Numbered from the stretch's first letter, positions 37,173 through 54,859 are shown. The stretch is 64,000 bases of DNA from Prochloron sp. SulCav_FS08_3_32_3330 (GCA_020721205.1 DYNF01000007.1:1241-65240); one strand, 5' to 3'. Made by a program: numbers and translations. Notes: generated by a model not told the origin, from the sequence alone.

Positions 37173-37210
37173 TATCTAACATAAATTAAAACAATTGTAG
37201 GGTATGCCCT

Positions 37211-37411
37211 GCTACAGCATGGCGTTTTCATTCTTTTTTTTCCAACGGGTTAAAACCCGTTGCTACCCAAACAAAACCCGTCTTCACGGGTTTTCTGATT
37301 AAATATTAACTAATATTAAAAAATTAAACCTGCGTAGGCAGGTTTTGTTTATGTAGCAAGGGGTTTCAACCCCTTGCCTCCCGAGAATGAAAACACCCTG
37401 CTGCTACAGAG
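37211..37411 (+). mobile_element. Four-hairpin MITE copy 4 (complete, with target-site duplication)
   Basis: Terminal repeats catggcgttttcattc (37220-37235) / gaatgaaaacaccctg (37387-37402), flanked by the 9-bp direct repeat ctgctacag (37211-37219, 37403-37411). Confidence 0.88.
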
Positions 37412-37423
37412 GCTAGGGATCAA

Positions 37424-38017
37424 TTAAGACTCTCTTAATGCTTTTTGATAAGCAATAACAGCTTGAGTTTGACTAGCATAATTCATAAATTGACTTAATA
37501 AAGAAAAATCTAATTCGGGTAAAAATTGACTGCGATTAATTTGTTGATATTTGTCATTAATTAAACGATAAATTAAAAACTTATTATTTTGCCAAAACCA
37601 AACTTCAGGCACACCTAAACCTTGATAAACTTTAAGTTTATCAATACCACCACTGGTTAAAGCAATTTCTAAAGCAATATCAGGAAATTGATGAAATGAA
37701 CCTAAATAATAACATTCATCGGGTTCTAAACCTCTTTCATTTGCTTGTTTACGAAAGGTTGTATTGCCATAACCATTAAGTTCAATTTGTTTTTCGACGG
37801 CGAATATTTCAATTAAACGGGCTGTGATTTTTTTCAATCTTTCGTGTTCAGAGGAAGTTCCCATAATTTCTAAAGCTCCTTCTAAATAAATCATTCTTAA
37901 ACTAGGAAATTGATCAATAAATAAATTAACAAGGGTATCATATTGTTCCCAAGTTACACCATAAAGTAAAATGCGATTTTCATTGGTTAAAGTGTTAATT
38001 TCATTTAAAAGTTGCAT
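37424..38017 (-). CDS. Uma2-family (DUF820) endonuclease
   Basis: 197 aa; 'YLEGALEIMGTSSEHE', 'EPDECYYLG', 'PDIALEI' fit the Uma2 PD-(D/E)XK pattern. Confidence 0.7.
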   Translation of the reverse strand: MQLLNEINTLTNENRILLYGVTWEQYDTLVNLFIDQFPSLRMIYLEGALEIMGTSSEHERLKKITARLIEIFAVEKQIELNGYGNTTFRKQANERGLEPDECYYLGSFHQFPDIALEIALTSGGIDKLKVYQGLGVPEVWFWQNNKFLIYRLINDKYQQINRSQFLPELDFSLLSQFMNYASQTQAVIAYQKALRES

Positions 38018-38044
38018 AATAATTAAATCTCCTTTTTTAGATTA

Positions 38045-39685: not shown

Positions 39686-42124
39686 TTATTTAATCTCTTT
39701 AAAACCTGTTAAAACGCCATAAATAGCCCAGATTGCCATAGCCCTTAAATAATGACTGGCACGGAATGTACCCCTAGGGGTAATAGCTTCAGGAGTGCGA
39801 AACTGTAAACCATTTTCATAAATTTGTTTTACCACTGTTTCAGCTATTTTTAAACCTTCTTCTTTCATCTCATTTTTAATCATAAAGGCGGCTAAACCAA
39901 AATTAATTCCGATCCATACTTCTAAGGGATGAGTCGCATCTGGTTTCTCCGGTGATCCGTCAATTTTAACTCCATTTGCCACTCCATATTTTCCATTATG
40001 AAACTTTAAGAAACAAGCTGAATAAATGGTTTTTAAAGTGGTTTCTACATACTCTTTTTCCACCACATTTGGTAAGTTTAATAATTGGGCATAAAACTCT
40101 CCACTAAGTTGATCTGCCATTACTACATCCGATTTACTTTCACTATCTAAATTATAATAATTCCCATTCCATAAAGTATCATGATAAATTGATCTAGCTT
40201 GTTGTAACCAAGCTTGATAACTTGTTATTTTATCCTTAATATCTTCGGGATCAAAATCATCTATTCTTTCAGGATAAAAACTAGGATTTTCGATTAAAAT
40301 TTCCCCAATTTTAATCGCCGCTTCTAAGGCAGAAATCCATAAACCGCCACAATAGGCACTAATACCTTCTAAACGCCAATCATCAAAAGTTTGATCCGGC
40401 GCCCCTGAATTTTCGGGAATGCCATCTTCATCTTGATCAAAGGTTTTTAAATAGGTTAAAGTTTCTGTAATTCCATCCCAACAATCCCATAAAAATTCTG
40501 TGTCTTTTGCTCCTGTTAAAACATAATCCCGATATACTTGCAAAACAAAATCACAGGGTAAATCCTTCCATTGGTTACAATCCTGATAAGAGGTATAATT
40601 TGTTTTTTCCCAAGGATGTTCATTCGGCGCTCCTAAATCGTGGGGAGTAGCCCCGATCCTTTTTCTGACTGCCATAGTCAGGTTATAACCGATTAAACGA
40701 GGGGTATTATTTCCCTCAGAAATCGCCCTCGCAAATGCCTGTAATACTGATTTATCTAATTTAGACCAACCCATTAATAAGCCAAATGATCCGTACAACC
40801 TCACATCCAAACTCTCATACCACCGATAATCAAGACATTCTAACACTCCAAATTGTCCGATAGGATCATCTTCTGAGGCTGATGTCCATAATGTACCACC
40901 ATCTGCTAATAAATAAAGTTCGTTAAACAGAGCCATTTTCAGCCATGAAGGGAGATCCGCCCTTCCCAAAATCGGTTTTTGCCATGCCTCTATTTTTTCT
41001 TTCCACAGATCCCCATGTTTTAAAGCGGTGCGCACGATCGTCCAAGCATTTTTACCACTACGTCCAAAAAAGTCAGTATAACGACGATAATAGTTAACAT
41101 TCTGAGCAAATTCTGTAATCGGAAAATCCCAAGCTAAAATAAAAGGAATTTTACGAGTTTTACCCGGAGGAATAGTGAATCTAATCGCCATAGCCGTGGC
41201 AATTTGTTCCCCGGGTTCAGAGGGAGTTTCATCCTCATAATCTCTTAAACTACCATTGTGAGCAAAATCATCCCAGAGATCACTTCCGTCTCCTGTGGCA
41301 TCCCAACGAGTCTGATAAAAAACTTCCATAAATGGGCTAGTTACACTGGCGATCGCAAATTGTCCTTCACTCTCTCTAATTTCATCATAAAGACGCACCC
41401 GATCCATCAAACAGCCCACTCGATGATAATCTTTAATCCATTGGTTATAATTCCCCGTACTATTACCCAACCGAGGTTGATACTCATAAACAGGACTACC
41501 ATCATCCCTCATTGTAATTTCTGAGCTTTTCGCCCCATTAGTAAACCAGCCTACCATATTTTGCCATGTGAGCATAATACTAACAGTAATCGGTTTATCC
41601 GTAGGATTATGAGCAGTCCACTCAAATAATGCGACGGGATAACTACTTTCTTGATAATTTTCAGCCCAAATGGGGGAGAATTGCTCACAAATTAATTTTG
41701 AGTGAAAAACGCCCTCATATTCATACCAACTCATAGGATAAAGAGCGCTATAAGTACCTTTTTCCTTGGGATACCATGCCCAACGGGAAAGACTACCATC
41801 CTTCGGCGCTTGGGTAGCCATAGCATAAACTTGGGGCGTTTCTCCTTCCTTATGCTCAAAAACGCTAAACTGACAAGCTGGAATCGAGCGAAAAATATGT
41901 TCTCCGCCGTCTATATGCCATAAATTAAAATCCCCAGAAGTTGAGCGCCCGATCGCCCCGGCACCAAAACCACCGAGGGGCATTCCGTGATCAGCACCAT
42001 CATCTAAATTACTTTGAGTTCTAACTGTGTAGGGGTTTTCCCACTGTTTACCAATGGGATGAGACCAAGCGATTTCGGGAATTGTGGGTAATGAGATTTG
42101 TAGTTTCATGGAAAAATTAGACAA
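39686..42124 (-). CDS. GH116-family beta-glucosidase (GBA2-type glucosylceramidase-like)
   Basis: 812 aa; N-terminal 'PLGGFGAGAIGRSTSGDFNLWHI', characteristic of the GBA2-type domain, and a large (alpha/alpha)6-type C-terminal region. Confidence 0.75.
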   Translation of the reverse strand: MSNFSMKLQISLPTIPEIAWSHPIGKQWENPYTVRTQSNLDDGADHGMPLGGFGAGAIGRSTSGDFNLWHIDGGEHIFRSIPACQFSVFEHKEGETPQVYAMATQAPKDGSLSRWAWYPKEKGTYSALYPMSWYEYEGVFHSKLICEQFSPIWAENYQESSYPVALFEWTAHNPTDKPITVSIMLTWQNMVGWFTNGAKSSEITMRDDGSPVYEYQPRLGNSTGNYNQWIKDYHRVGCLMDRVRLYDEIRESEGQFAIASVTSPFMEVFYQTRWDATGDGSDLWDDFAHNGSLRDYEDETPSEPGEQIATAMAIRFTIPPGKTRKIPFILAWDFPITEFAQNVNYYRRYTDFFGRSGKNAWTIVRTALKHGDLWKEKIEAWQKPILGRADLPSWLKMALFNELYLLADGGTLWTSASEDDPIGQFGVLECLDYRWYESLDVRLYGSFGLLMGWSKLDKSVLQAFARAISEGNNTPRLIGYNLTMAVRKRIGATPHDLGAPNEHPWEKTNYTSYQDCNQWKDLPCDFVLQVYRDYVLTGAKDTEFLWDCWDGITETLTYLKTFDQDEDGIPENSGAPDQTFDDWRLEGISAYCGGLWISALEAAIKIGEILIENPSFYPERIDDFDPEDIKDKITSYQAWLQQARSIYHDTLWNGNYYNLDSESKSDVVMADQLSGEFYAQLLNLPNVVEKEYVETTLKTIYSACFLKFHNGKYGVANGVKIDGSPEKPDATHPLEVWIGINFGLAAFMIKNEMKEEGLKIAETVVKQIYENGLQFRTPEAITPRGTFRASHYLRAMAIWAIYGVLTGFKEIK

Positions 42125-42251
42125 GTTTATGATATTTTACCTAATAAAAATTAAAATAACACAAATTTGCCCTGAATCCCGCATTTCTCACAAAAAGAGT
42201 GAATTGGGTAGAGTTATAAAGCGATCGCAGTGATCGCCCTTTTAATTATCA

Positions 42252-42453
42252 ACGGAGTTAATCGCTGATTTACGGGATGAGCCTGTGCCTACCACATCAC
42301 CGACATAAGCCACAGGATAGCCATTTTCTTTCAATTTAGCGATGGTTTCTAAGCCTTCGGGCATTTTTGATTCTAACATCGCTAAAGCGTGTAAGGGAAT
42401 GTCCGGGCGTGTGGTAGCGTGGGGTGCTGGAGATAAATCATCGGTATTGGTTT
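42252..42453 (-). pseudogene. Internal fragment of acnB (direct repeat of 50245-50446)
   Basis: 202 bp aligning colinearly with intact acnB, with 11 mismatches and no gaps by hand alignment. No flanking acnB sequence on either side. Confidence 0.85.
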
Positions 42454-42546
42454 TTTAAACTGATTTTAGGTTATGATAATTTTGAGCAAATTTTAGGCTA
42501 TGATAAAATCATCTTTACCAATCAAGATTATATGGAGGTAGGTATT

Positions 42547-42843
42547 ATGTTAGCAACTGAAAATAAACAAAAATCAATCCTTAAGAGAATTGAGCAAGTT
42601 GTATCTGTCATTATGGAAGAAAATCCTTTATTTAAAGAGGATCTGAATTATTCAGAAATGGTAAAACTTTTAGTTAATCTTGCTCAAGAAAATTTGACTT
42701 TTGAAGATTTTAACAGTATGCCAGATACAGAATTAAAAAAACATTGTGATGGCGTAATGGCAATAGAGATATTGTCAAAAATTGGTCGAGATTTTACTCC
42801 TGAACAAATGGTAATTTTTGAAGATGCAATTAAACGTAAATAG
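42547..42843 (+). CDS. Putative antitoxin of the adjacent VapC
   Basis: The track ORF 42424-42843 starts inside the acnB fragment. A GGAGG box precedes the ATG at 42547 (MLATENKQ...). The stop lies 7 nt before the vapC start. Family not recognised. Confidence 0.4.
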   Translation: MLATENKQKSILKRIEQVVSVIMEENPLFKEDLNYSEMVKLLVNLAQENLTFEDFNSMPDTELKKHCDGVMAIEILSKIGRDFTPEQMVIFEDAIKRK

Positions 42844-42850
42844 AAGATTT

Positions 42851-43255
42851 ATGAGTTATTTATTAGATACTAATATTGTCTCTTTAGCTGTTAGAGATAA
42901 TTTAAAAATCAAAGCTAAACTACAATCAATTGAATTTCGAGGTATAGATATTTATATTAGCTGTATTACTTATTTTGAAATTAGACGAGGTTTTTTAGCT
43001 GTTGATGCTCCTAAACAAAGGGAAAGATTTGAGGATTTTTGTCAAAAATATCCGATTCTTTTCTTAGATGATTTGGCAATATTAGAAAAAGCCGCCGAAA
43101 TTCATGCTAATCTGAGATTAAGGGGTTTACCTATTCAAACTGAAGATATTTTAATTGCGGCTACTGCTATGATTAAAGATTTAATTGTGGTTTCTAATGA
43201 TACTGATTTAGCTAGAGTTGAAGGTTTAAGTTTAGAGAATTGGGTAGAATTGTAA
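42851..43255 (+). CDS. vapC: PIN-domain toxin VapC
   Basis: 'MSYLLDTNIVS' with the first PIN Asp; later 'TEDILIAATA' and 'VVSNDTDL' acidic motifs. Confidence 0.8.
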   Translation: MSYLLDTNIVSLAVRDNLKIKAKLQSIEFRGIDIYISCITYFEIRRGFLAVDAPKQRERFEDFCQKYPILFLDDLAILEKAAEIHANLRLRGLPIQTEDILIAATAMIKDLIVVSNDTDLARVEGLSLENWVEL

Positions 43256-43350
43256 GATTTGTAAATATCTTAATTAATTGATTGATTGATCATTCTTATT
43301 CTAGGTTATAATTATGATTATCTTTAAAATAAATCAGGAGGTTAAATTGA

Positions 43351-43701
43351 TTGTTGTTTGATAAGTTGACTTCACCTAGTTATTTTGAAATTCCTTTAGC
43401 TAAAGCTCAATATCTTTTTAGTCGTGGTAATGGTCAAGGTGGAGATAAACAAAAATTTTGGCGAGAAATTATGGGTTTTACTTCTCCAGAAGCCATTAAA
43501 GAAGCTATTTTAAAAGAGGTAAGTCTCGATTTATTAGAACCCCAAAATCAAAATGAATTTGGACAATTATATCGGGCTTATATTAATATTACTGGTGAAT
43601 CTGGTTTAACTCGAAGAATTAGAACGGTTTGGATTGTTTTATTTTATGATAATGTCGCTAAATTGGTGACAGCATTTCCTGATAGATTAGGAGGTTTATA
43701 A
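43351..43701 (+). CDS. DUF6883-like protein
   Basis: 116 aa (TTG start); 'KAQYLFS...GGDKQKFW...GFTSPEA...RTVWIV...LVTAFP' follows the DUF6883 pattern as I recall it. Confidence 0.45.
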   Translation: MLFDKLTSPSYFEIPLAKAQYLFSRGNGQGGDKQKFWREIMGFTSPEAIKEAILKEVSLDLLEPQNQNEFGQLYRAYINITGESGLTRRIRTVWIVLFYDNVAKLVTAFPDRLGGL

Positions 43702-44099
43702 TGACTCGATTTCAATTATTTGATAATGTTAAATTAACTGAAAATATCCCTTTAAATGATGGCGGAATTGCACATCAAGAAACTAGAGGAACAATTGTTG
43801 AAGTTTTTAATAATGGTGAAGCTTATTTAGTTGAATTATTTGGTGATTGGATTAAATATGATGCTGAGGGAAATTTTATCACAGCAAATAAAGATGAAAA
43901 AGATGCTTTTATGCAAACTTTAGGAGTAGAAACGGTTTATGATCATCAAATGGTTTTAACAGTTTCAGCAAGAGAAATTATGGGAGTTAAAGAACATTTA
44001 AACGCTTTATTAGAAACTTTACCTGATAATTTGGTTTTACAAGTTAGAGATTTTGCTGAATTTTTACAACAAAGACAACAATTAACTGTTAAAAATTAA
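43701..44099 (+). CDS. DUF4926-like protein
   Basis: 132 aa; the start overlaps the upstream stop (ATAATG). N-terminal 'FQLFDNVKLTENIPLNDGGIAHQETRGTIVEVFNNGEAYLVELF' fits the DUF4926 SH3-like pattern. Confidence 0.55.
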   Translation: MTRFQLFDNVKLTENIPLNDGGIAHQETRGTIVEVFNNGEAYLVELFGDWIKYDAEGNFITANKDEKDAFMQTLGVETVYDHQMVLTVSAREIMGVKEHLNALLETLPDNLVLQVRDFAEFLQQRQQLTVKN

Positions 44100-44194
44100 A
44101 TCATCATGGTTATATTAATTTAGAGGATAAAAATGAATTTATCAAACCAGCTTTTAGTGATTTAAAGGTGTTAGTTTAATTTTCATTAAGTTTT

Positions 44195-45067
44195 TTATAA
44201 TATTAAATAACCCCTATCTAATCCTTGTTCTAATCCTTTTTCCCAATCAGATGTTAAATGTTTTCTAACTATTTCAAATAAATGAATAACAACATCATCA
44301 TAAATTGGATTCTTAACATAACTTTCAAGATAACGAAATTCTCGATCTGTATTTTTCTGTTTTCTTAATATATAAATTTGATCAACTTTGAATTTTTGTA
44401 AATTGATTGAACTGGTTAATTTAAGCCATTCAGCAACAATAATATAAATAGCATTAGGATTGCGTAACTTTAACTGTTCTGCTGCGGTCGAAGCACCCTC
44501 TAACATGGTTTTATCTAAATAGGTTTTACATTCAATTACCACTGCTGGTAGTTGAAACTGATAAGTTTCAATTTCTTCACTACCAATACAATTAAAATCG
44601 GCTTTAATATCTGTACCAATAACAAAATCATGATCCTTTGTTTCTAATCTTACGTTAGGTTTTGTTACCATTTCTTGATAAGAACTAGGACGGAAAAATA
44701 TATCTTTAAATGTGTTTGCTTTTCCTAATAAAGCAGATTGAGATATATCATAAACTAAATCTCTAAATAAGTAAAAAATAAATTCTTCTAACACTGAAGA
44801 ATGCAAATTTGAACGAGAATCAAATTTTTCAGCATATTTTTGTTGATCTAAAAAATTTTTATAGATATTAAGTAATTTAACTCTACGTTTGATAATTTTA
44901 GTATCCTGATCTGTTGATTGTGCAAAAGCTCCTCTTAATTTCTCATTAATTCTTCTCCATTGATCATATTGTATACGAATTTCTTGAAGAAATTGCCGAG
45001 ATTCAGGATCAGTATATTTAGTTTTGTGTAATTCTTTTTGTCTTAAATTATCACCATGAACATACAT
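44195..45067 (-). CDS. Type II restriction endonuclease (specificity unknown)
   Basis: 290-aa ORF 12 bp downstream of the m5C methyltransferase gene on the same strand. PD-(D/E)XK-like 'DFVIGTD ... VVIECK'. Confidence 0.55.
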   Translation of the reverse strand: MYVHGDNLRQKELHKTKYTDPESRQFLQEIRIQYDQWRRINEKLRGAFAQSTDQDTKIIKRRVKLLNIYKNFLDQQKYAEKFDSRSNLHSSVLEEFIFYLFRDLVYDISQSALLGKANTFKDIFFRPSSYQEMVTKPNVRLETKDHDFVIGTDIKADFNCIGSEEIETYQFQLPAVVIECKTYLDKTMLEGASTAAEQLKLRNPNAIYIIVAEWLKLTSSINLQKFKVDQIYILRKQKNTDREFRYLESYVKNPIYDDVVIHLFEIVRKHLTSDWEKGLEQGLDRGYLIL

Positions 45068-45079
45068 AATTAATACCTC

Positions 45080-46279
45080 TTAAATTGATATTTGTTGTAA
45101 TAAATTTTCAGCGATCGCTTTAGCTAATAAAGGAGGAACAGCATTACCAATTTGATTATATTGACATAGGTGTTTTTCATCAAATCTTCCTTCTCTTTGT
45201 AATAATTTTTGACTAACTACTGTGGGTTTACCTTTAAAAATATACCAATCTGGAAAAGATTGGATTCTAGCACCTTCTCTAGCGGTAAAATTTCTATGTT
45301 GATAGGGATGAACAAAGTTAGCATAAAAGGAAGCAGGTATAGTATGACATGGTTTATCGGGGTGCATTCTCCTACTATTTTGATCATAAATTTTATCGGA
45401 AATTATTCCTTGATTATTTCTTTTAAATGGTTTTAAATGTTGGGGAATATTGGCTAAAGAATCACCATGAGACATTAAAGAAAAACGCTCTACTGTACGT
45501 TTAGAATGTTTCATAGCCACATGATTATAAACCGTTGGCGAACCTAAACGCATTTGTATTTGATATTCGTGATCAGAAGGTTTTGTGTAATCCATTTCTT
45601 CTGCTCCTTCTCTAGCAGAAATTTCGGGTAAATCTGCGATCGCTTCCCATAATGTAGGACATTTTTTCAACATAGTTTTAAAAATTGGTAATACTTCTGA
45701 ATCAAGATAATGGGTAGGTTGAGGAAATGGTTGTTTCAAGGGATGAATTGAACCAATAATAAATAGTCTTTTTCTAATTTGAGGAATGCCATAATCTGTT
45801 GCTTCTAAAATATCGTAATATACATAATAGCCTAATTCTTGTAAATTTTGACAAATCAGATAAATAATTAATTGATTATCGTGATTTTTAGCTTTTAATA
45901 AGTTAGGTACATTTTCAATAATTAAATATTCGGGTTTAAATAATTTAATAATTCTAATAAATTGAAAAAATAAAGAATTACGATGATCATTTGGATCACC
46001 TGCATTTTTATTACAAATTGAAAAACCTTGACAGGGAAGACCACCTAAAATAATATTAGGTGATTGATGATTAAATGTTTCTATTAAATTATCATCAGTA
46101 ATATTTTCTATTTTATCAGTAATTACTGTTGCCATTGTATGATTATAAACAAAAGTTTCTGATGCCCACTTGTCTTGTTCAATAGCACCAATAATATCAC
46201 ATCCTGCTAGTTTAAAGCCTAAACTAAAGCCTCCTGCTCCGGCAAATATATCTAAAACTTTAAGGTTGTTATTGGTCAT
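45080..46279 (-). CDS. DNA (cytosine-5)-methyltransferase
   Basis: 399 aa; motif I 'DIFAGAGGFSLGF', IV 'GGLPCQGFS', VI 'ENVPNL', VIII 'QIRKRLFIIG', X 'GNAVPPLL'. Confidence 0.92.
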   Translation of the reverse strand: MTNNNLKVLDIFAGAGGFSLGFKLAGCDIIGAIEQDKWASETFVYNHTMATVITDKIENITDDNLIETFNHQSPNIILGGLPCQGFSICNKNAGDPNDHRNSLFFQFIRIIKLFKPEYLIIENVPNLLKAKNHDNQLIIYLICQNLQELGYYVYYDILEATDYGIPQIRKRLFIIGSIHPLKQPFPQPTHYLDSEVLPIFKTMLKKCPTLWEAIADLPEISAREGAEEMDYTKPSDHEYQIQMRLGSPTVYNHVAMKHSKRTVERFSLMSHGDSLANIPQHLKPFKRNNQGIISDKIYDQNSRRMHPDKPCHTIPASFYANFVHPYQHRNFTAREGARIQSFPDWYIFKGKPTVVSQKLLQREGRFDEKHLCQYNQIGNAVPPLLAKAIAENLLQQISI

Positions 46280-46354
46280 TATTTATCAATTAATATAGGG
46301 TTAATTTTTAGATGTTTACTGTTTAATAATATTATTATAAGGCAAAAATGAATA

Positions 46355-46790
46355 TATTTAGCAGCGATCGCACCCCAATCTCCCCTACAAAGCGATCGCA
46401 CCTTAAACTCCCCTAAAAAGCGATCGCACCCCAAACTCCCCCACAAAGCGATCGCACCCCAAACTTCCCCAAAGAGCGATCGCACCTTAAACTCCCCTAC
46501 AAAGCGATCGCACCTCAAACTCCCCAAAGAGCGATCGCACCCCAAACTTCCCCAAAGAGCGATCGCACCCCAAACTTCCCCAAAGAGCGATCGCACCCCA
46601 AACTTCCCCAAAGAGCGATCGCACCTCAAACTCCCCTAAAAAGCGATCGCATATCTAACTCCCCTCAAAAAGCGATCGCACCTCAAACTCCCCTAAAAAG
46701 CGATCGCACCACCAACTCCAACAACAAGCGATCGCATCCCAAACTCCCCTAACAAGCGATCACATCTCAATCTCTCCTTACAGGAGATAA
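46355..46790 (-). repeat. 28-bp HIP1-containing minisatellite, 15 units
   Basis: GCGATCGC at 46364, 46392, 46420, 46448, 46476, 46504, 46531, 46559, 46587, 46615, 46643, 46672, 46700 and 46728, plus a degenerate gcgatcac at 46756. Unit approximately AAAGCGATCGCACCYCAAACTYCCCYAA. No unique spacers. Confidence 0.95.
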
Positions 46791-46864
46791 ATTTATTAAA
46801 TGGTGTACTCAAGATTGCTCAAATTCAATAACGTAGACAAGAATTATAGCGTTTGCAATCTATT

Positions 46865-47887
46865 TTAGTAGAATAGCAAAGGTTTAATTCTTCTTTTTCG
46901 TTCATATAATTCTGTAATAAGCAATTCTTTATTATAATGAAATTGTCTAAGATATTCAATAAATAAATCAATAGTTGTTTCATATATAGTACCACCATTA
47001 AAATGAACATGAAAATCATCATGAATTTTATAAGTGATTGTAATTAAATTATCAATATTAGCAGCAAGATAAGGATAGTGAGATTCATCATATAAGTGAT
47101 GAACTCTTAAATTGACCTGATAACGATTATATTGATTTTTTTGAATACCAGTAACTTGACAAGTATTATTATCTCTTTTAAGAGCTTTTTCCTTCATATA
47201 ATTGATCAGATTTCTATCTGGTTGATGAGGGAGTGATTTAGTTCTTTGTTCTAAAATAGGAAGACCTATATTTAAAAATTCACTATAATAATTTTTTTGC
47301 TCTGGTATTGTTTTTGATAATTCTTGACTAAATTTAGCTAAACCAGAAAATGAATAATATCTTTGTGTTTCAATAGTACAAAAATCTTCATCAATAATTA
47401 AGCTATCTGGAGGACGAAACCTTCTTAATTTAAGAAAAAGTTGATCAAGCTGTTCTGATGTTGTTTGCAATATATTGATTGTATCAATTTTACTTAAAAA
47501 ATGACGATTATTTACTTTTGTCAGAGAAGTACAGTTTTGATTAATGACTTCTGTTACTTTATATCTTAATAATTGTTGTTCTTTTTTTGTTATTAATTGA
47601 TTAATAAAATTTTTATTTTTATCGCCAATCAGAGCTACAAAATCTTGAATTTCGGAATCAGAAATTAGACCTCTAGTATCAAGATAATTAGCGATGATAA
47701 AAGCACCTTGTTTTGAAAACAATTTTTCTTGATATGTCTTGTTACAAATTCTAAAATGATCATTTTCAGTCAATTTATTATTTGAAATAAGTTGTTTTAT
47801 TATTGCAGTTAATTGATCTCTTTGTATATATAGAGATTTTGCAATTTCTTCTTCATCAAATAAAAAAGTTGTATTATCAATATACAT
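46865..47887 (-). CDS. HNH-endonuclease-domain protein with unassigned N-terminal region
   Basis: 340 aa; C-terminal 'CQVTGIQ...LRVHHLYDESHYPYLAANIDNLITITYKIHDDFH' HNH motif. GGAGG lies 11 nt upstream of the ATG, inside the end of the J-domain gene. Confidence 0.7.
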   Translation of the reverse strand: MYIDNTTFLFDEEEIAKSLYIQRDQLTAIIKQLISNNKLTENDHFRICNKTYQEKLFSKQGAFIIANYLDTRGLISDSEIQDFVALIGDKNKNFINQLITKKEQQLLRYKVTEVINQNCTSLTKVNNRHFLSKIDTINILQTTSEQLDQLFLKLRRFRPPDSLIIDEDFCTIETQRYYSFSGLAKFSQELSKTIPEQKNYYSEFLNIGLPILEQRTKSLPHQPDRNLINYMKEKALKRDNNTCQVTGIQKNQYNRYQVNLRVHHLYDESHYPYLAANIDNLITITYKIHDDFHVHFNGGTIYETTIDLFIEYLRQFHYNKELLITELYERKRRIKPLLFY

Positions 47888-47893
47888 TATTGA

Positions 47894-48310
47894 TTAAGCC
47901 TCCGCAGTAATAGTTCTATACATTTGATTGATTCTATTAAAAATTTTAGAATCACCAGTTTCTATGACATCAGGATGGTAAATTTTGCTTAATCTATAGT
48001 AAGCTGTCTTTATGTCTTGATCCGTAGCAGTATCAGGATTTAATTCAAATACTGTCCAAGGATCAAAATAATCAAATATATTAATTCCATTAATACAACC
48101 ATAACCATTCTGATTTTCTTCAGAAGGAAGAACACCTACAAATTTACGATATAATAGTTCCCACGTTTTTTTATATCGAAAATCTAATTTGTCCATGCCA
48201 TCAATTGAAAGTTTAAATAAACCAGATTTCTTTAATTCTGATGTATTTTTAACATTGAATTTAATATAAACTTTTTCTTTTAGTTTTTTAATTGTTAAAG
48301 TTGATCTCAT
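47894..48310 (-). CDS. Small J-domain (DnaJ-like) protein
   Basis: C-terminal 'DQDIKTAYYRLSKIYHPDVIETGDSKIFNRINQMYRTI' with the HPD tripeptide. Likely start is Met33 of the track ORF (48310), because the longer ORF overlaps the acnB 3' end. The N-terminal ~85 aa are unassigned. Confidence 0.75.
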   Translation of the reverse strand: MRSTLTIKKLKEKVYIKFNVKNTSELKKSGLFKLSIDGMDKLDFRYKKTWELLYRKFVGVLPSEENQNGYGCINGINIFDYFDPWTVFELNPDTATDQDIKTAYYRLSKIYHPDVIETGDSKIFNRINQMYRTITAEA

Positions 48311-48386
48311 TTCATACTCAATACTATGTAAAAGATTACTTATTATAAGGTGAGTCCTAAAATTAAGACCCACCCTAAAAATTATA

Positions 48387-50975
48387 CTACACCAAAACAT
48401 CCTCAAACTTAGGCATTTTCTCCACAGGAATTACCCGCCCGAAATCCTCAAAACCCGCAATCTCATCAAAATTGAGATAACGGTATAAATCACCCTTAAA
48501 CGGGTCAACTTTTTGAGCCACAATACTCATATATTCCTCAACAGTAGGAATCTTACCTAATAACGCACATACCGCCGCCAACTCCGCACTACCGAGATAC
48601 ACCCTTGCACCCTTACCCATGCGATTATTAAAATTACGGGTAGAAGTAGAGAAAACAGTAGCATTATCCTCAACTCTTGCCTGATTTCCCATACAGAGGG
48701 AACATCCGGGCATTTCTGTCCTTGCACCCGAAGCTACAAAGATATCATAAACCCCTTCCTCTTGTAACATTTGTTCATCCATGCGGGTGGGTGGACATAT
48801 CCATAAACGCCCTTTAACCGTACCTGCACCCTCAAGAATCTTAGCCGCAGCCCGATAATGTCCGATATTGGTCATACATGAACCAATAAACACCTCATCT
48901 ACCTTGTCTCCGGCACATTCGCTCATTAATTTTACATTATCAGGGTCATTGGGTGCGGCGACAATGGGTTCTTTTATCTCACTTAAGTTTACCTCAATGG
49001 TATCCACATATTCTGCATCCGCATCGGCAGACATTAAACTCGGATTTTGCAACCATGCTTCCATTTTGGCAATACGGCGTAACAAGGTACGAGCATCTTG
49101 ATATCCCCTTGCGATCATATTTTTCATTAAGACGATATTAGAACGCAAGTATTCCGCTACAGTCTCCTCACTGAGTTTAATGGTACTACCAGAACAACTA
49201 CGCTCTGCTGTAGCATCGGTTAATTCAAAAGCCTGTTCTACCTTTAAATCGGGTAATCCTTCCATTTCCATAATGCGACCATTGAAAACATTGATTTTGT
49301 TCTCTTTGCCGTAGGTAAGTTTACCCTGTTGCATGGCTACCCAGGGAATAGCGTTAACGATATCTCGTAATGTTACCCCTGGTTGTAATTCCCCTGTAAA
49401 CTTGACTAAGACCGATTCTGGCATATCTAAAGGCATTACCCCTAAAGCCGCCGCAAAAGCGACTAAACCTGAACCTGCGGGAAATGATATTCCTAAAGGG
49501 AAACGGGTATGAGAGTCGCCCCCTGTACCCACTGTATCGGGTAATAACATCCGATTTAACCAAGAGTGAATGATACCATCTCCCGGACGTAAAGCCACTC
49601 CCCCTCTCGTTGAGAAAAAGTCGGGTAATGATTTGTGGGTTTTGATGTCAACGGGTTTGGGGTAAGCGGCGGTATGACAGAAGGTTTGTAAGGTTAAATC
49701 AGCATTGAAACCTAAACAGGCTAACTCTTTTAACTCGTCTCTGGTCATAGGTCCTGTGGTATCCTGAGAGCCTACGGTGGTCATTATCGGTTCGCAGGAT
49801 GTACCCGGACGAATACCAGTAACTCCACAGGCTTTACCTACCATTTTCTGAGCTAACGTATAGCCTTTACCCGTGTCTTCTGGAGGTATAGGACGTACAA
49901 ATAGGGTAGAAGTCTCTAATCCTAAAGCATGACGGGCTTTATCGGTTAAGGTGCGTCCAATTAAAAGAGGAATACGTCCACCCGCACGAACTTCATCTAA
50001 AATCGTATCGGGTTTGAGGGTAAAGGTGGTAATGGTTTCGCCGTTTTGATTGGTAATCTTACCCAGATAGGGGTGTATTGTGATTACATCACCCGTATTC
50101 AGTTGAGTTACATCGCATTCTATGGGTAATGCGCCTGAATCTTCGGCAGTATTAAAGAAAATGGGAGCGATTTTCCCCCCTAGAATGTAACCACCTGCCC
50201 GTTTATTGGGTACAAAGGGAATATCGTTACCAATATGCCATAATACGGAGTTAATCGCTGATTTACGGGATGAGCCTGTGCCTACCACATCACCGACATA
50301 AGCCACAGGATAGCCGTTTTCTTTCAATTTGGCGATGGTTTCTATGCCTTCGGGCATTTTTGACTCTAACATCGCTAAGGCGTGTAAGGGTATATCGGGG
50401 CGGGTGGTGGCGTGGGGTGCTGGGGATAAATCATCGGTATTGGTTTCCCCTGGCACTTTAAACACGGTGACGGTGATTTCTTTGGCAACTTTCGGTTTAC
50501 TGATAAACCATGCACCGTTAGCCCAAGCATCCATCACCTGTTTAGCGTAGGGGTTGGTATCGCATCCATGCAATACATCGTTAAACGCATCAAAGACTAA
50601 CAGGGTTTTACTTAGTGCGATCGCTGCTTCTGAAGCAATATTACTATCTTGAGACTTGAGCAGTTCGATCAGGGATTGCACATTATAGCCTCCCATCATT
50701 GTACCGAGTAAGTCCACCGCACCTTGAGGACTGATCAAAGGACATTTAATTTCACCTTTAGCAACACCTGTTAAAAATCCGGCTTTGACGTAGGCGGCTT
50801 CGTCAACTCCGGGGGGTATGCGATCCCTGAGTAACATCATCAGGGTTTCGGCTTCGCCTTCGGGGGGATTTTTCAGTAACTCGCACAGTTGGGAGGTTTG
50901 TTCGGCATTGAGGGGTAAGGGGGGAATGCCTAATTTTGCCCGTTCTTCGGCGTGTTTCCGGTATTCTTGTAACAT
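48387..50975 (-). CDS. acnB: Aconitate hydratase B (bifunctional aconitase 2 / 2-methylisocitrate dehydratase)
   Basis: 862 aa; N-terminal '[22 protein letters not shown]', typical of AcnB; Fe-S ligand regions 'IGSCMTN' and '[12 protein letters not shown]'. Confidence 0.93.
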
Positions 50976-51765: not shown

Positions 51766-52629
51766 ATGGCTTGGTCAAGAGGCTATAGATTAAATAATGG
51801 TAAATATACCATTAGTCAAGTATTAGGTGAAGGTGGTTTTGGAATTAGCTATCTTGCTACAGATTATCAGGGAAAAAATGTGGTAATTAAAACTTGTAAT
51901 GATAGTGTTAGACGAGAGCCAAATTTTGCGAAATTTCAACAAGATTTTGTCAATGAAGCTCTTAGACTAAGAGGATGTCAGCATCCTCATATTGTTCAAG
52001 TTTATGAGTTAATTCAAGAAGGTTCATTGTGGTGTATGGTTATGGAGTATATATCAGGTAAAAGTTTGTGGGATTCAGTTAAAAGTTCTGGATATTTAAC
52101 AGAAGGAGAAGCGTTAATAAATATTCAGTTTATTGGAGAAGCCCTTAAAGTTGTGCATCGAAATGGTTTATTACATCGAGATTTAAACCCTAAAAATATT
52201 ATGATAGACCGATTATTTGGAGCAACATTAATTGATTTTGGTTTAGCTCGTGAATTTGTCACTAATCGAACTAAAACTCATACGGTAGCTGCTTTTCCTG
52301 GATTTGCTCCTATTGAACAGTATGGTACAAGAAATAAACGAGGAGCTTATACTGATGTTTATGGTTTAGCCGCCTCATCCTACTACGCTTTAACAGGTCA
52401 AATTCCTACATCTGCTCCTGATCGAGTTTCAGGAATTAGATTAGAGTCACCACAATGGTTAAATCCACAGATTAGTAATCGGATCAATCAAGCTATTTTA
52501 GATGGTATGGAATTATATCCAGAAAATCGTCCTCAATCAGTGCAGGAATGGTTAAATGGTTTGACAAACAGTCCTCCTCCGGTTGATTTTAAGCAATTTG
52601 CAAATCTCGTTGATCCTCAAGGGTTTTAG
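51766..52629 (+). CDS. Stand-alone Hanks-type Ser/Thr protein kinase (catalytic domain only)
   Basis: AAGGAGG lies 8 nt upstream of the ATG at 51766. 'GEGGFGISYLA' G-loop, 'VVIKT', 'HRDLNPKNIM', 'DFGLA', 'APIEQ'. No sensor or repeat domain. Confidence 0.85.
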   Translation: MAWSRGYRLNNGKYTISQVLGEGGFGISYLATDYQGKNVVIKTCNDSVRREPNFAKFQQDFVNEALRLRGCQHPHIVQVYELIQEGSLWCMVMEYISGKSLWDSVKSSGYLTEGEALINIQFIGEALKVVHRNGLLHRDLNPKNIMIDRLFGATLIDFGLAREFVTNRTKTHTVAAFPGFAPIEQYGTRNKRGAYTDVYGLAASSYYALTGQIPTSAPDRVSGIRLESPQWLNPQISNRINQAILDGMELYPENRPQSVQEWLNGLTNSPPPVDFKQFANLVDPQGF

Positions 52630-52772
52630 AGGAGTTTTGAGGTGCGATCGCTTTGGTAAGGGAGTTTTGAGGTGCGATCGCTTTTTAAGGGAGTTTGAAG
52701 TGCGATCGCTCTTTAGGGTAGTTTGAGGTGCGATCGCTTTTAGTGGTAGTTTGGGGTGCGATCGCTTTTAAG
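52630..52772 (+). repeat. Cluster of 5 units of the 28-bp HIP1 repeat (GGGAGTTTGAGGTGCGATCGCTTTT)
   Basis: HIP1 at 52644, 52674, 52702, 52730 and 52758. Starts at the kinase stop codon. Reverse-complement orientation relative to the 46.3-46.8 kb array. Confidence 0.9.
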
Positions 52773-52835
52773 GACAAATCAGTAATTATAGATTATGATT
52801 ATAATAGTTTATTGTTAATTTTGAGGAATTTACTA

Positions 52836-53111
52836 ATGATTACAGTTAATCAAAATCTAAATAATAATGACCTTTTAGCATTAGTTAAAAAAGTCGAAAC
52901 TGAAGGCGAAAGAATCATTATTGAAACGGAAAATAAAGGAAAAGTCGCTATTATTAATTATGCAGATTTGCAACAATTAGAAGATGCTAGAGATTGTGCA
53001 GAATTACGTCAAGCTATAGCAGAAAGTAGTGGTGAATTTTATACACTTGATCAAGTTTTAGCTGAAAGAGGTTTAACTTTAGAAGATATTATGAGTGAGG
53101 AAGATGAGTAA
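52836..53111 (+). CDS. Phd/YefM-like antitoxin
   Basis: In-frame ATG at 52836 (MITVNQNL...). The upstream part of the track ORF is repeat-encoded. 'GKVAIINYADLQQLEDARD' resembles a Phd/YefM core. Confidence 0.55.
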   Translation: MITVNQNLNNNDLLALVKKVETEGERIIIETENKGKVAIINYADLQQLEDARDCAELRQAIAESSGEFYTLDQVLAERGLTLEDIMSEEDE

Positions 53112-53373
53112 AGTATATTTATTATTGGTGGAGAAATCAGTTTTAAAAACTTTAAATGATCTTCCTCTTAAGCAGTATAAGCAAGTGACAATGAAATTAT
53201 TTTCACTGCAAAGAAATCCTTTTCCTCAAGATTCTAAAAAGTTAAAAGGTTTTGAGGACAGTTATCGAGTAGATCAAGGTGAATATCGAATTTTATACAC
53301 GGTTGAGGATGATAAAATTAGGGTGTTTAAAACTGGTAAACGTAATGATGATGAAGTTTATCAAAATTTGTAA
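53095..53373 (+). CDS. RelE/ParE-family toxin
   Basis: 92 aa, overlaps the antitoxin stop; 'SYRVDQGEYRILYTVEDDKIRVFKTGKR'. Confidence 0.7.
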   Translation: MRKMSKVYLLLVEKSVLKTLNDLPLKQYKQVTMKLFSLQRNPFPQDSKKLKGFEDSYRVDQGEYRILYTVEDDKIRVFKTGKRNDDEVYQNL

Positions 53374-53469: not shown

Positions 53470-53566
53470 CTAGAATCTTTATTTTAGGTAGATGACTATG
53501 GTAACTACAAATAATTCAAGAAAAATTAGACAATTTAACATTCGTTTTGGGAGAGGTGTTACTTAA
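53470..53566 (+). pseudogene. Internally deleted copy of the 51115-51336 antitoxin cassette head
   Basis: 'tagaatctttattttaggtagatgactatggtaac...aaaaattagacaatttaaca' matches 51094-51163 and joins directly to 'ttcgttttgggagag', which matches 51306-51320. About 140 bp are missing. Confidence 0.65.
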
Positions 53567-53571
53567 AAATA

Positions 53572-53841
53572 ATGACTGGTATTAATTATCCTATTGAATT
53601 AGATATAAAACACATCGCCAAACATTTACCTAATACTCCTCAAATGAGACGACTTTTAAGAAAAGGACTTTCAGCACATATTTTTAAAGATATTGAAACT
53701 TTAGAAAGAGTTACTCAAGCTATTATTGAAAGAGGAGAATATACAGGTAAAATAAGAAAATATGAACGATATGGTTTATATTTTAGTGACGTAATTGGTT
53801 ATAGAATTGATCCTGATGGCACACAATTAAACCTTTATTAG
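53572..53841 (+). CDS. Hypothetical 89-aa protein (toxin-like, unassigned)
   Basis: ORF beginning 5 nt after the remnant's stop. No motif recognised. First gene of a tight two-gene module. Confidence 0.35.
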   Translation: MTGINYPIELDIKHIAKHLPNTPQMRRLLRKGLSAHIFKDIETLERVTQAIIERGEYTGKIRKYERYGLYFSDVIGYRIDPDGTQLNLY

Positions 53842-53857
53842 GTCGAAATGAAAATCA

Positions 53858-54130
53858 ATGACAGCAACAAATATCATGTTATCCCTAGAACAAGCCCAAG
53901 TAGAGAATAATTGGCAATTTACAGAGGTTTGGATTGATCCGATGTTAACACCTCCTTATCTACTTTTATTATTAGTTGATAGTGAAGGAAAATGTCATAT
54001 TTATGATCCTGCTAAAGATTATCAAGTAATATTTTCTAGTAATGATTATGAAACAGCTAAATTATGGTTATTAGAGGATGAATATGAACCAATTGAGGGT
54101 AGATTATCTTTAGATGAATTGCTTGTTTGA
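53858..54130 (+). CDS. Hypothetical 90-aa acidic protein (immunity/antitoxin-like, unassigned)
   Basis: ORF 16 nt downstream of 53572-53841. Acidic ('LLEDEYEPIEGRLSLDELL'). No motif recognised. Confidence 0.35.
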   Translation: MTATNIMLSLEQAQVENNWQFTEVWIDPMLTPPYLLLLLVDSEGKCHIYDPAKDYQVIFSSNDYETAKLWLLEDEYEPIEGRLSLDELLV

Positions 54131-54243
54131 AGGGTGGTTTGAGGTGCGATCTCTTTGATGGGGGTTTAAGGCGCGATCTCTTTTGTAAGGGAGTTAGTGA
54201 TGAGATCGCTTGTTGGGGAGTTTAAGATGCGATCTCTTTTAAC
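54131..54243 (+). repeat. 4 units of the 28-bp repeat (gcgatctc variant)
   Basis: gggtggtttgaggtgcgatctc / ggggtttaaggcgcgatctc / gggagttagtgatgagatcgc / gggagtttaagatgcgatctc. Confidence 0.8.
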
Positions 54244-54306
54244 CACAAATTGGTAATTATAGATTATGATCGCATTAGTTCATTCTTGATATTGAGGAAA
54301 TTACTA

Positions 54307-54597
54307 ATGATTACAGTTAATCAAAATCTAAATAATAATGACCTTTTAGCATTAGTTAAAAAAGTCGAAACTGAAGGCGAAAGAATCATTATTGAAACGG
54401 AAAATAAGGGAAAAGTAGCTCTTATTAATTATCAAGATTTACAATTGTTAGAAGATTTAGAAGATGCTAGAGATTGTGCTGAATTACGTCAAGCAATAGA
54501 AGAAAGTAAGGGGCAACCTAGTATTACCTTTAATGAGTTATTAGACGAATTAGGTTTAACAATTGAAGATTTAACATCTGGAGATGAAAATGAGTAA
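54307..54597 (+). CDS. Phd/YefM-like antitoxin (paralog of 52836-53111)
   Basis: The first ~40 codons are identical at the protein level to 52836-53111. The C-terminus diverges, with an extra 'LEDLED'. Confidence 0.55.
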   Translation: MITVNQNLNNNDLLALVKKVETEGERIIIETENKGKVALINYQDLQLLEDLEDARDCAELRQAIEESKGQPSITFNELLDELGLTIEDLTSGDENE

Positions 54598-54859
54598 AGA
54601 ATATTCTTTAATTATTGAACATTCGGCTAGAAAAAGTTTAAAAAATCTTCAACCCAAATTTATAAAACAGATTGTTTTTAAGATATTTACTTTACAAGAT
54701 AATCCTTTTCCTCAAGACTCTACAAAATTAAAGGGTTTTGAGGACAGTTATCGAGTAGATCAAGGTGAATATCGTATTTTATATACCGTTGAGGATGATA
54801 AAATTAGGGTATTTAAAATTGGTAAACGTAATGATGACGAAGTTTATCAAAATTTATAA
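54584..54859 (+). CDS. RelE/ParE-family toxin (paralog of 53095-53373)
   Basis: The C-terminal ~45 aa are nearly identical to 53095-53373 ('NPFPQDS.KLKGFEDSYRVDQGEYRILYTVEDDKIRVFK.GKRNDDEVYQNL'). The N-terminal third diverges. Confidence 0.7.
   Translation: MKMSKEYSLIIEHSARKSLKNLQPKFIKQIVFKIFTLQDNPFPQDSTKLKGFEDSYRVDQGEYRILYTVEDDKIRVFKIGKRNDDEVYQNL

Follow-up and report, generated by a model that had tools for sequence, protein, structure and literature searches.

Why should a segment from the interior of acnB, the gene for aconitate hydratase B, be found a second time on the far side of a block of accessory genes, beside a toxin-antitoxin cassette? The question is raised by a stretch of 64,000 nucleotides (nt) from Prochloron sp. 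SulCav_FS08_3_32_3330 (GCA_020721205.1 DYNF01000007.1:1241-65240), which was analysed as a whole and is called here the window; positions refer to it unless a locus is named. In this window 202 bp of acnB lie a second time at the edge of an island of restriction-modification (R-M) genes, an HNH-motif gene and a vapBC cassette. We find that this displaced piece derives from a different, once-functional acnB allele, and that pieces of acnB recur beside the same vapBC family in other cyanobacteria. The explanation to which we lean, with slightly better than even confidence, is that the piece is a scar of recombination, homologous or illegitimate, left by the turnover of the island beside acnB.

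A second acnB allele at the island edge

An initial annotation of the locus had described positions 42252-42453 and 50245-50446 as a colinear repeat of 202 bp with 11 mismatches and no gaps. MAFFT and a repeat finder reproduced this direct repeat exactly (94.6% identity; BLAST E-value of the pair about 1e-84), with an abrupt loss of similarity at both ends. It corresponds to nt 530-731 of the 2589 nt of acnB (codons 177 to 243/244), an internal segment that does not contain the 3' end of the gene, and the spacing between the two copies is 7993 bp. The displaced copy is indeed devoid of flanking acnB sequence, as had been claimed, and tblastn and short-word blastn searches of the rest of the 64-kb window found no further acnB-like sequence. 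An assembly artefact is excluded by the agreement of three independent assemblies: the NCBI assembly (L001) has a structure identical to that of the window, a JGI metagenome contig (L002) has the same structure with one single-nucleotide polymorphism and one minisatellite unit fewer, and a Logan unitig (L170) runs from the GH116 side into the piece and ends inside it. Exact-protein look-ups identify the three datasets as one strain.

The piece had been taken for a decaying relic in an AT-rich genome, on the ground that at seven of the 11 differing sites the gene has G/C where the fragment has A/T. The count is correct (of the remaining differences one is the reverse and three are composition-neutral) and the 7:1 bias is real, but it reflects two alleles rather than decay, and the relic reading fails when the differences are placed in codons. 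Ten of the 11 are synonymous changes at third positions; the eleventh (I211L) replaces the isoleucine of the gene by leucine in the piece, leucine being the residue at codon 211 in 121 of 140 cyanobacterial AcnB sequences. The copies differ as functional alleles do, with a synonymous pattern and a replacement residue that is common in orthologues. A longer piece, which adjoins the vapBC cassette of another JGI contig (L086; AcnB 93% identical in amino acids, aa), differs from the acnB of its own contig at 23 sites, 19 of them at third, 4 at first and none at second positions, and 20 of the 23 are synonymous. When the two are pooled, 29 of 34 differences fall at third positions and none at second. 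This departs both from a uniform spread (P = 6e-10) and from a model of neutral decay in the piece with purely synonymous change in the gene (P = 2e-6); the neutral expectation is about one third of the changes per codon position, or about 46% at third positions if the gene drifts synonymously. Neither the 202 nt of the window piece nor the 342 nt of the L086 piece contains an indel or a stop codon. Because the differences are almost purely synonymous, the piece must have diverged while part of a working gene. It represents a second acnB allele, about 5% divergent from the resident one, and 15% at third positions.

The differences are also unevenly placed. In both long pieces they crowd toward the vapB end (combined P = 0.003): those of the window piece all lie within 42323-42431, and no difference from the resident gene occurs in the distal 71 nt of this piece or in the distal 46 nt of the L086 piece. 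To judge from this distribution, the polarity fits a crossover inside the piece, or repair of the distal junction with the intact gene as template.

Toward the GH116 glycosyl hydrolase gene, the piece is accompanied by a second remnant. It covers 32 nt, the 3' end of another vapC with the HIP1 site after the stop codon; 22 of 23 nt agree with the end of the L086 vapC, 19 of 22 with that of the window's own vapC, and over the full 32 nt it is 90.6% identical to the corresponding sequence of L172. The sequence downstream of this remnant differs from that of the current vapC. Directly after this relic stands a predicted terminator-like hairpin, the sole site of the kind in a scan of 41900-43000. 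Read in the direction of acnB, the order is thus acnB, island, vapC-vapB, acnB nt 530-731, terminator and vapC end, GH116 upstream region. This looks like two generations of an acnB-island-vapCB unit, the older of which has been nearly all deleted. The GH116 region is 93% identical in nucleotides to locus L083 and 86% to L084, neither of which has acnB beyond the point of divergence at 42170. That the piece lies close to the GH116 gene had been seen before and holds, but the distance given, 125 bp, does not: it is 127 nt from the longest start (TTG 42124), and 142 nt, by coordinate arithmetic, from the ATG implied by an 807-aa gene call. Table 1 collects the coordinates.

Table 1. Coordinates of the features discussed; positions are those of the window except in the last row
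Feature	Position	Strand	Evidence or remark
GH116 glycosyl hydrolase gene	39686..42124	-	Pfam Glyco_hydr_116N and GH116 catalytic domains; conserved flank beyond the putative scar
Conserved GH116 upstream region	42125..42170	.	Synteny with L083 and L084 ends at 42170
3'-end relic of another vapC	42198..42229	+	32 nt; includes the stop codon and the HIP1 site after it
Terminator-like hairpin GCGATCGCAGTGATCGC and T-run	42221..42247	+	Predicted; directly after the vapC relic
acnB piece (copy A)	42252..42453	-	Gene nt 530-731; same orientation as acnB, antisense to vapB
vapB promoter/operator region	42454..42546	+	ATTTTAGGYTATGATAA motif twice; predicted promoter-like plus-strand site
vapB antitoxin gene, 98 aa	42547..42843	+	Paired with vapC; homologues in L086, L171-L173, L006 and L183 all 98 aa
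vapC PIN-domain toxin gene, 134 aa	42851..43255	+	Pfam PIN, E-value 1e-14
DUF6883 gene and neighbour with sub-threshold DUF4926/DUF2281	43351..44099	+	Pfam; only DUF6883 passes the cut-off
Bpu10I-family endonuclease gene, type II R-M	44195..45067	-	Pfam, PADLOC, NCBIfam
C5 cytosine methyltransferase gene, type II R-M	45080..46279	-	Pfam, PADLOC, NCBIfam
28-bp minisatellite with HIP1, 14.2 copies	46363..46761	.	Tandem Repeats Finder, repeat finder
Gene for 340-aa protein with C-terminal HNH endonuclease motif	46865..47887	-	PHROG HNH families, best E-value 8e-6, residues 230-293
Gene for small J-domain protein	47894..48406	-	Pfam DnaJ, E-value 6e-9; NCBIfam matches weak
acnB, aconitate hydratase B, 862 aa	48387..50975	-	Pfam Aconitase_B_N, Aconitase_2_N, Aconitase
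Resident repeat copy within acnB (copy B)	50245..50446	-	Alignment and repeat finder
acnB 3'-end copies at other loci	L017 16697-16828; L056 12290-12447; L107 13269-13399; L113 4944-5146; L085 14976-15198

acnB pieces beside vapBC and at other acnB loci

The cassette next to the piece has the standard type II layout, in which a small antitoxin gene is followed by a gene for a PIN-domain toxin; the NCBIfam VapC models match the window toxin at 73 bits, below the curated cut-off. Its VapC homologues are 75-96% identical in amino acids across many cyanobacterial genera. The NCBI annotation places the start of VapB at a GTG within the acnB piece (42424-42546), which gives a protein of 139 aa. As all homologues and the JGI call have 98 aa, with the start at 42547, the longer protein is probably an over-extended gene call.

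We examined nine copies of this cassette: those of the window, L086, L171 and a Planktothrix locus (L173 and equivalents), three in L172, and one each in L006 and L183. Four of the nine have a piece of acnB directly upstream of vapB, 50-93 nt from its start codon and always antisense to it. The segment involved differs from one cassette to the next: nt 530-731 in the window, nt 1286-1627 in L086, nt 1224-1310 in L171 and about nt 1634-1700 in Planktothrix. In L086, acnB is followed by an island (XisH, XisI and a C39 peptidase, with no HNH gene), vapC, vapB and then the acnB piece. There vapC and vapB are 81% identical in nucleotides to those of the window, and the piece, gapless and 93.3% identical to its own gene, lies 51 nt beyond the vapB start. 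The L171 piece is decayed, with one indel and a stop codon. No acnB stands beside the Planktothrix cassette in the flanks examined (4 kb); the piece there encodes KLTVGK, like L086 and Cyanobacterium, whereas Planktothrix AcnB has KLTIGK, which implies that the piece travelled with the cassette.

The five copies that lack a piece are the three in L172, which stand in tandem, and those of L006 and L183. The Roseofilum locus L006 has acnB, island, vapC and vapB in this order, and the region upstream of its vapB is similar in sequence to 42454-42546; the homology of the window cassette with other loci begins at 42535, 12 nt before the vapB start codon. L183 is 92% identical in nucleotides to 42535-44101, and shows vapB, vapC, the DUF6883 gene and its DUF4926-like neighbour moving together in a block of four genes. 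The cassette lies 3-6 kb downstream of acnB in three genomes. The tandem copies of L172 (4794-8352) are 80-89% identical in nucleotides to the window cassette, and the spacers between them are HIP1-rich and resemble the minisatellite unit of the window. Searches of plasmid and viral collections did not find the vapBC cassette of the window, and a literature search found no paper linking acnB with VapC in cyanobacteria; the recurring association of an acnB piece with this cassette thus appears to be undescribed in the literature searched.

Copies derived from acnB also occur beside the gene at six further loci (L017, L056, L107, L113, L085 and L012). In all of them except L012, the final 100-200 nt of acnB are repeated downstream of the gene, and these five displaced copies mostly run into the native downstream flank. 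Between acnB and the copy are found DUF433/DUF5615 to HicA genes in L017, XisH-XisI in L056 and L085, and BrnT in L107; in L113 there is only an open reading frame (ORF) of 62 aa, which was not domain-scanned. In Pleurocapsa (L012, 470-659), the copy is of 196 nt (acnB nt 29-224) and stands upstream of the gene, at a distance of 1.7 kb.

Proposed island turnover and its alternatives

These observations can be brought together in the following account. Downstream of acnB, genomes of this clade carry a variable island of selfish cargo (toxin-antitoxin pairs, XisH/XisI, R-M genes and an HNH gene), and in several of them a convergent vapC-vapB cassette closes it. DNA from a related strain, made up of acnB or its 3' part, an island and vapBC, would have recombined into the resident locus. 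The conserved acnB would have provided one homology arm; at the other end, an illegitimate join would have linked the incoming DNA, just past the vapB promoter, with the resident acnB at about nt 530. The outcome would be an intact acnB with a new island, followed by a 5'-truncated second copy of acnB, of a different allele. This truncated copy and the previous occupant of the site would then have been trimmed by deletion or break repair, until only 202 bp of acnB and the 32-nt vapC end with its terminator were left. The order of these events, the choice of native allele and an origin of the distal junction in break repair are tentative.

The history of acnB itself may bear on this account. 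The AcnB of the window has 100% identity with P0121 and 93% with the next nearest relative. At the nucleotide level, the divergence between the acnB genes of the window and L086 is 20.6% over nt 1-529, where the two are no closer than either is to unrelated alleles, 6.4% over nt 530-731, and about 12% thereafter. A maximum chi-square analysis places a breakpoint at nt 510, about 20 nt from the boundary of the piece at nt 530 (0 of 300 permutations reach the observed value), with the N-terminal domain the faster-evolving one. The 3' third of the gene gives yet another relationship in neighbour-joining trees, so that the mosaic would have joints at several places and not only at nt 510. The comparison is suggestive of an acnB that is mosaic in this clade, with a breakpoint near the piece boundary.

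Several points nevertheless weigh against recombination scarring as we have described it. The account needs at least one later deletion, in which the second copy lost acnB nt 732-2589. Rate variation confounds the nt 510 breakpoint, the N-terminal domain being the faster one in every comparison. Between the window and L086, the 5' part of the gene diverges 1.75 times as much as the 3' part, a value inside the range of 530 control pairs (75th percentile 1.53, 95th 1.81), and neighbour-joining trees still pair the window weakly with L086 in the 5' part of the gene (57% bootstrap). The breakpoint cannot therefore be assigned to the lineage of the window. A profile of G+C at third codon positions (GC3) along acnB shows no step at the repeat and marks no foreign 3' part. 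Neither an empty site nor a polymorphic strain was found, the three datasets with the locus being of one strain; in AcnB scans of species-representative genomes and JGI metagenomes, the relatives among the matches listed are at most 89% identical in amino acids and none has GH116 near acnB. Finally, recombination scarring does not by itself explain why pieces of acnB stand exactly at the edge of the vapB promoter in four contexts. This recurrence may reflect the home of the cassette in an acnB-linked island, with scars hitch-hiking when it moves.

Once formed, the arrangement offers a substrate for its own loss. The initial annotation had pointed out that recombination between the repeats could destroy acnB, and this is upheld: it would delete nt 732-2589, or 72% of the gene, the longest identical run between the two copies being 71 bp. 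Selection against the loss of acnB would keep the arrangement stable.

One might speculate further that cyanobacterial selfish cassettes use the conserved acnB as a portable landing pad, in which case they would carry an acnB homology arm, restore the gene on entry and leave allele-specific pieces behind. We regard this as doubtful. The candidates would be the present vapBC family and may include XisH/XisI, BrnT/BrnA, HicAB, R-M and HNH genes, and in a variant of the same idea the antisense acnB piece may couple the expression of vapBC to acnB mRNA.

A related and rather unlikely alternative is that the piece is a selected part of a mobile vapBC, either as a homology arm or as the source of an acnB-antisense RNA tied to vapBC expression. 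The constant antisense placement in four of the nine cassettes (50-93 nt from the vapB start), the Planktothrix piece that travelled with its cassette, and the three genomes with the cassette 3-6 kb downstream of acnB all speak for it; so does the polarity of the long pieces, foreign-like near vapB and resident-identical distally, as would result from a crossover inside an arm. Against this, the pieces have no common sequence, two of them are short and decayed (that of L171 with its indel and stop codon), and five of the nine copies do without one. Anchoring by one arm within acnB would break an essential gene, and orientation and adjacency already follow from the shared architecture of the loci. 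An antisense role is less likely than that of an arm. The terminator-like hairpin stands upstream of the window piece, and the scan of 41900-43000 gave no promoter-like site upstream of the piece that would read through it toward vapB.

It is improbable, in our view, that the structure arose by nuclease homing. The HNH protein or the restriction enzyme would have cut a naive acnB near nt 530, and one-ended copying of the 3' part of a donor acnB and its island, followed by end-joining, would have left the resident end as the piece. The HNH-motif gene 0.5 kb downstream of acnB, the R-M pair of the island and the coincidence, within about 20 nt, of the nt 510 breakpoint with the proximal boundary of the piece would suit such a process. 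However, the HNH gene is a singleton with no homologue beside acnB among about 165 other acnB loci examined, the L086 island has a piece at its end and no HNH gene, and the breakpoint signal suffers from the rate variation described above.

Less probable still is a site-specific island of the integrase type, inserted in acnB with a replacement 3' portion, for which the 202-bp repeats would be attL and attR. Accessory genes are bracketed by direct repeats of the target gene, and acnB 3'-end duplications flank small cassettes at several cyanobacterial loci, much as such an island would require. Yet searches with Pfam, NCBIfam, PADLOC and PHROGs gave no integrase, recombinase or transposase for the island or its surroundings. 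The repeat lies inside the gene and lacks the 3' end, the two copies are 5.4% diverged, and the pieces start at acnB nt 530, 1224, 1286 and about 1634; such different segments in relatives mean that there is no fixed attachment site. The initial annotation had proposed an integrated element that brought its own replacement 3' part, as islands do at tRNA genes. Its view of the piece as a portion displaced from another acnB copy, at the outer end of an accessory island, is supported, and the architecture recurs in relatives, but its analogy with tRNA-gene islands falls with the lack of an integrase, a transposase and a tRNA gene. Campbell insertion of a circle carrying only the 202-bp piece is ruled out, as it would split acnB.

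A local duplication of the resident acnB segment followed by neutral pseudogene decay is just as improbable as an integrase island: seven of the 11 differences run from G/C to A/T and the piece has no coding context, but 29 of 34 differences at third positions and none at second (P = 2e-6 to 6e-10), the intact frames of the 202 and 342 nt, and an adjoining vapC relic that also differs from the current vapC and has other sequence downstream all contradict it; only a constraint on the sequence of the piece itself would save this reading from the codon-position test. A simple intragenomic tandem duplication is ruled out likewise, the acnB copies and the vapC relic being different alleles with different downstream sequence.

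Related systems and the remainder of the locus

The closest described category is the recombinase-free insertion of R-M units with long target duplication (Furuta, Abe and Kobayashi 2010, PMC2853133, which builds on earlier work in Helicobacter pylori). The published repeats measure from 46 to about 420 bp with 90-100% identity, and come mostly from naturally competent species, Microcystis being included (PMC2853133). Like these units, the island of the window has both R and M genes, spans less than 20 kb (7993-bp spacing), contains no mobility gene and is bracketed by long direct repeats (more than 30 bp; here 202 bp, 94.6%) of chromosomal sequence. Unlike them, its bracketed DNA includes 72% of the target gene, its distal copy breaks off without the remainder of the target, the repeats belong to different alleles, and no empty site was found.

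Islands with an integrase insert into tRNA, tmRNA or protein-coding genes at the 3' end, which they restore. They resemble the present case in that the target remains intact through an incoming replacement portion and the displaced copy stands at the far end; they differ from it in having an integrase, whereas here the segment is internal, the junction varies between genomes and the repeats are 5% diverged. Homology-facilitated illegitimate recombination and additive (ends-in, Campbell-type) integration have been shown in Acinetobacter, Streptococcus and Pseudomonas. They share with our preferred scar one junction anchored in homology and another without it, the entry of foreign cargo without a mobility gene and a possible duplication of the anchor; unlike them, the structure observed here needs a further deletion. 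Free-standing homing endonucleases beside conserved genes are represented by Seg and Mob of phage T4 and by F-CphI at psbA in cyanophages. The likeness lies in an HNH gene beside a conserved essential gene, from which the donor flank would be co-converted; the HNH gene of the window differs in that it is known by motif only and is not conserved beside acnB elsewhere. The cassette, for its part, is like other type II VapBC modules in its two-gene layout and PIN domain, and unlike those described in the acnB-derived flank of four of the nine copies. The feature is, on the reading that we prefer, a recombination scar of a known general kind, and what is new in it is the link between acnB pieces and vapBC.

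Two consequences follow for the interpretation of such repeats. Codon positions alone can separate the scar of a foreign allele from a decaying duplicate, which overturns the obvious reading of this one. Our data also suggest that the defence and addiction islands of cyanobacteria turn over by recombination at a conserved housekeeping gene, without integrases or transposases, and one toxin-antitoxin cassette carries pieces of acnB between genera. If the link proves general, it would explain how toxin-antitoxin cassettes without mobility genes spread and why they pile up around certain core genes; if the landing-pad proposal were true, this spread would take a recombinase-free route guided by homology. 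If the link is not general, what remains is an ordinary recombination scar.

The accessory gene content given by the initial annotation between the two copies agrees with our searches, the DUF4926 match being below threshold and the HNH motif appearing only with PHROGs. On the evidence of the cross-genus identity of VapC, of island proteins that are nearly all singletons at 90% identity clustering, and of cassettes like those of L085, the cargo of the island is taken to be horizontally mobile: the cassettes upstream of acnB are 90-95% identical in nucleotides to L085, or 83-95% when 53565-54858 is set against L085 8125-9173, while acnB itself is only 82%. The free-standing HNH gene, 0.5 kb downstream of acnB, is likewise a singleton in this clustering, and Pfam gave no match for its 340-aa product. 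Scans for tRNA genes and with Rfam found nothing.

The 28-bp minisatellite has a shorter counterpart of 5.3 copies at 52624-52773, inverted and about 6 kb from 46363-46761. Because the HNH and J-domain genes, acnB and a PIN module stand between these arrays, the region they enclose could conceivably invert. Within the toxin-antitoxin cluster upstream of acnB, about 730 bp are duplicated with 80.6% identity (52658-53373 and 54130-54859). A second small variable segment lies near GH116: positions 37175-38040, with a Uma2-family ORF at 37424-38017, are swapped in L083 for an AAA_15/SMC_N ATPase gene, and L083 is 93% identical to the window on both sides of it.

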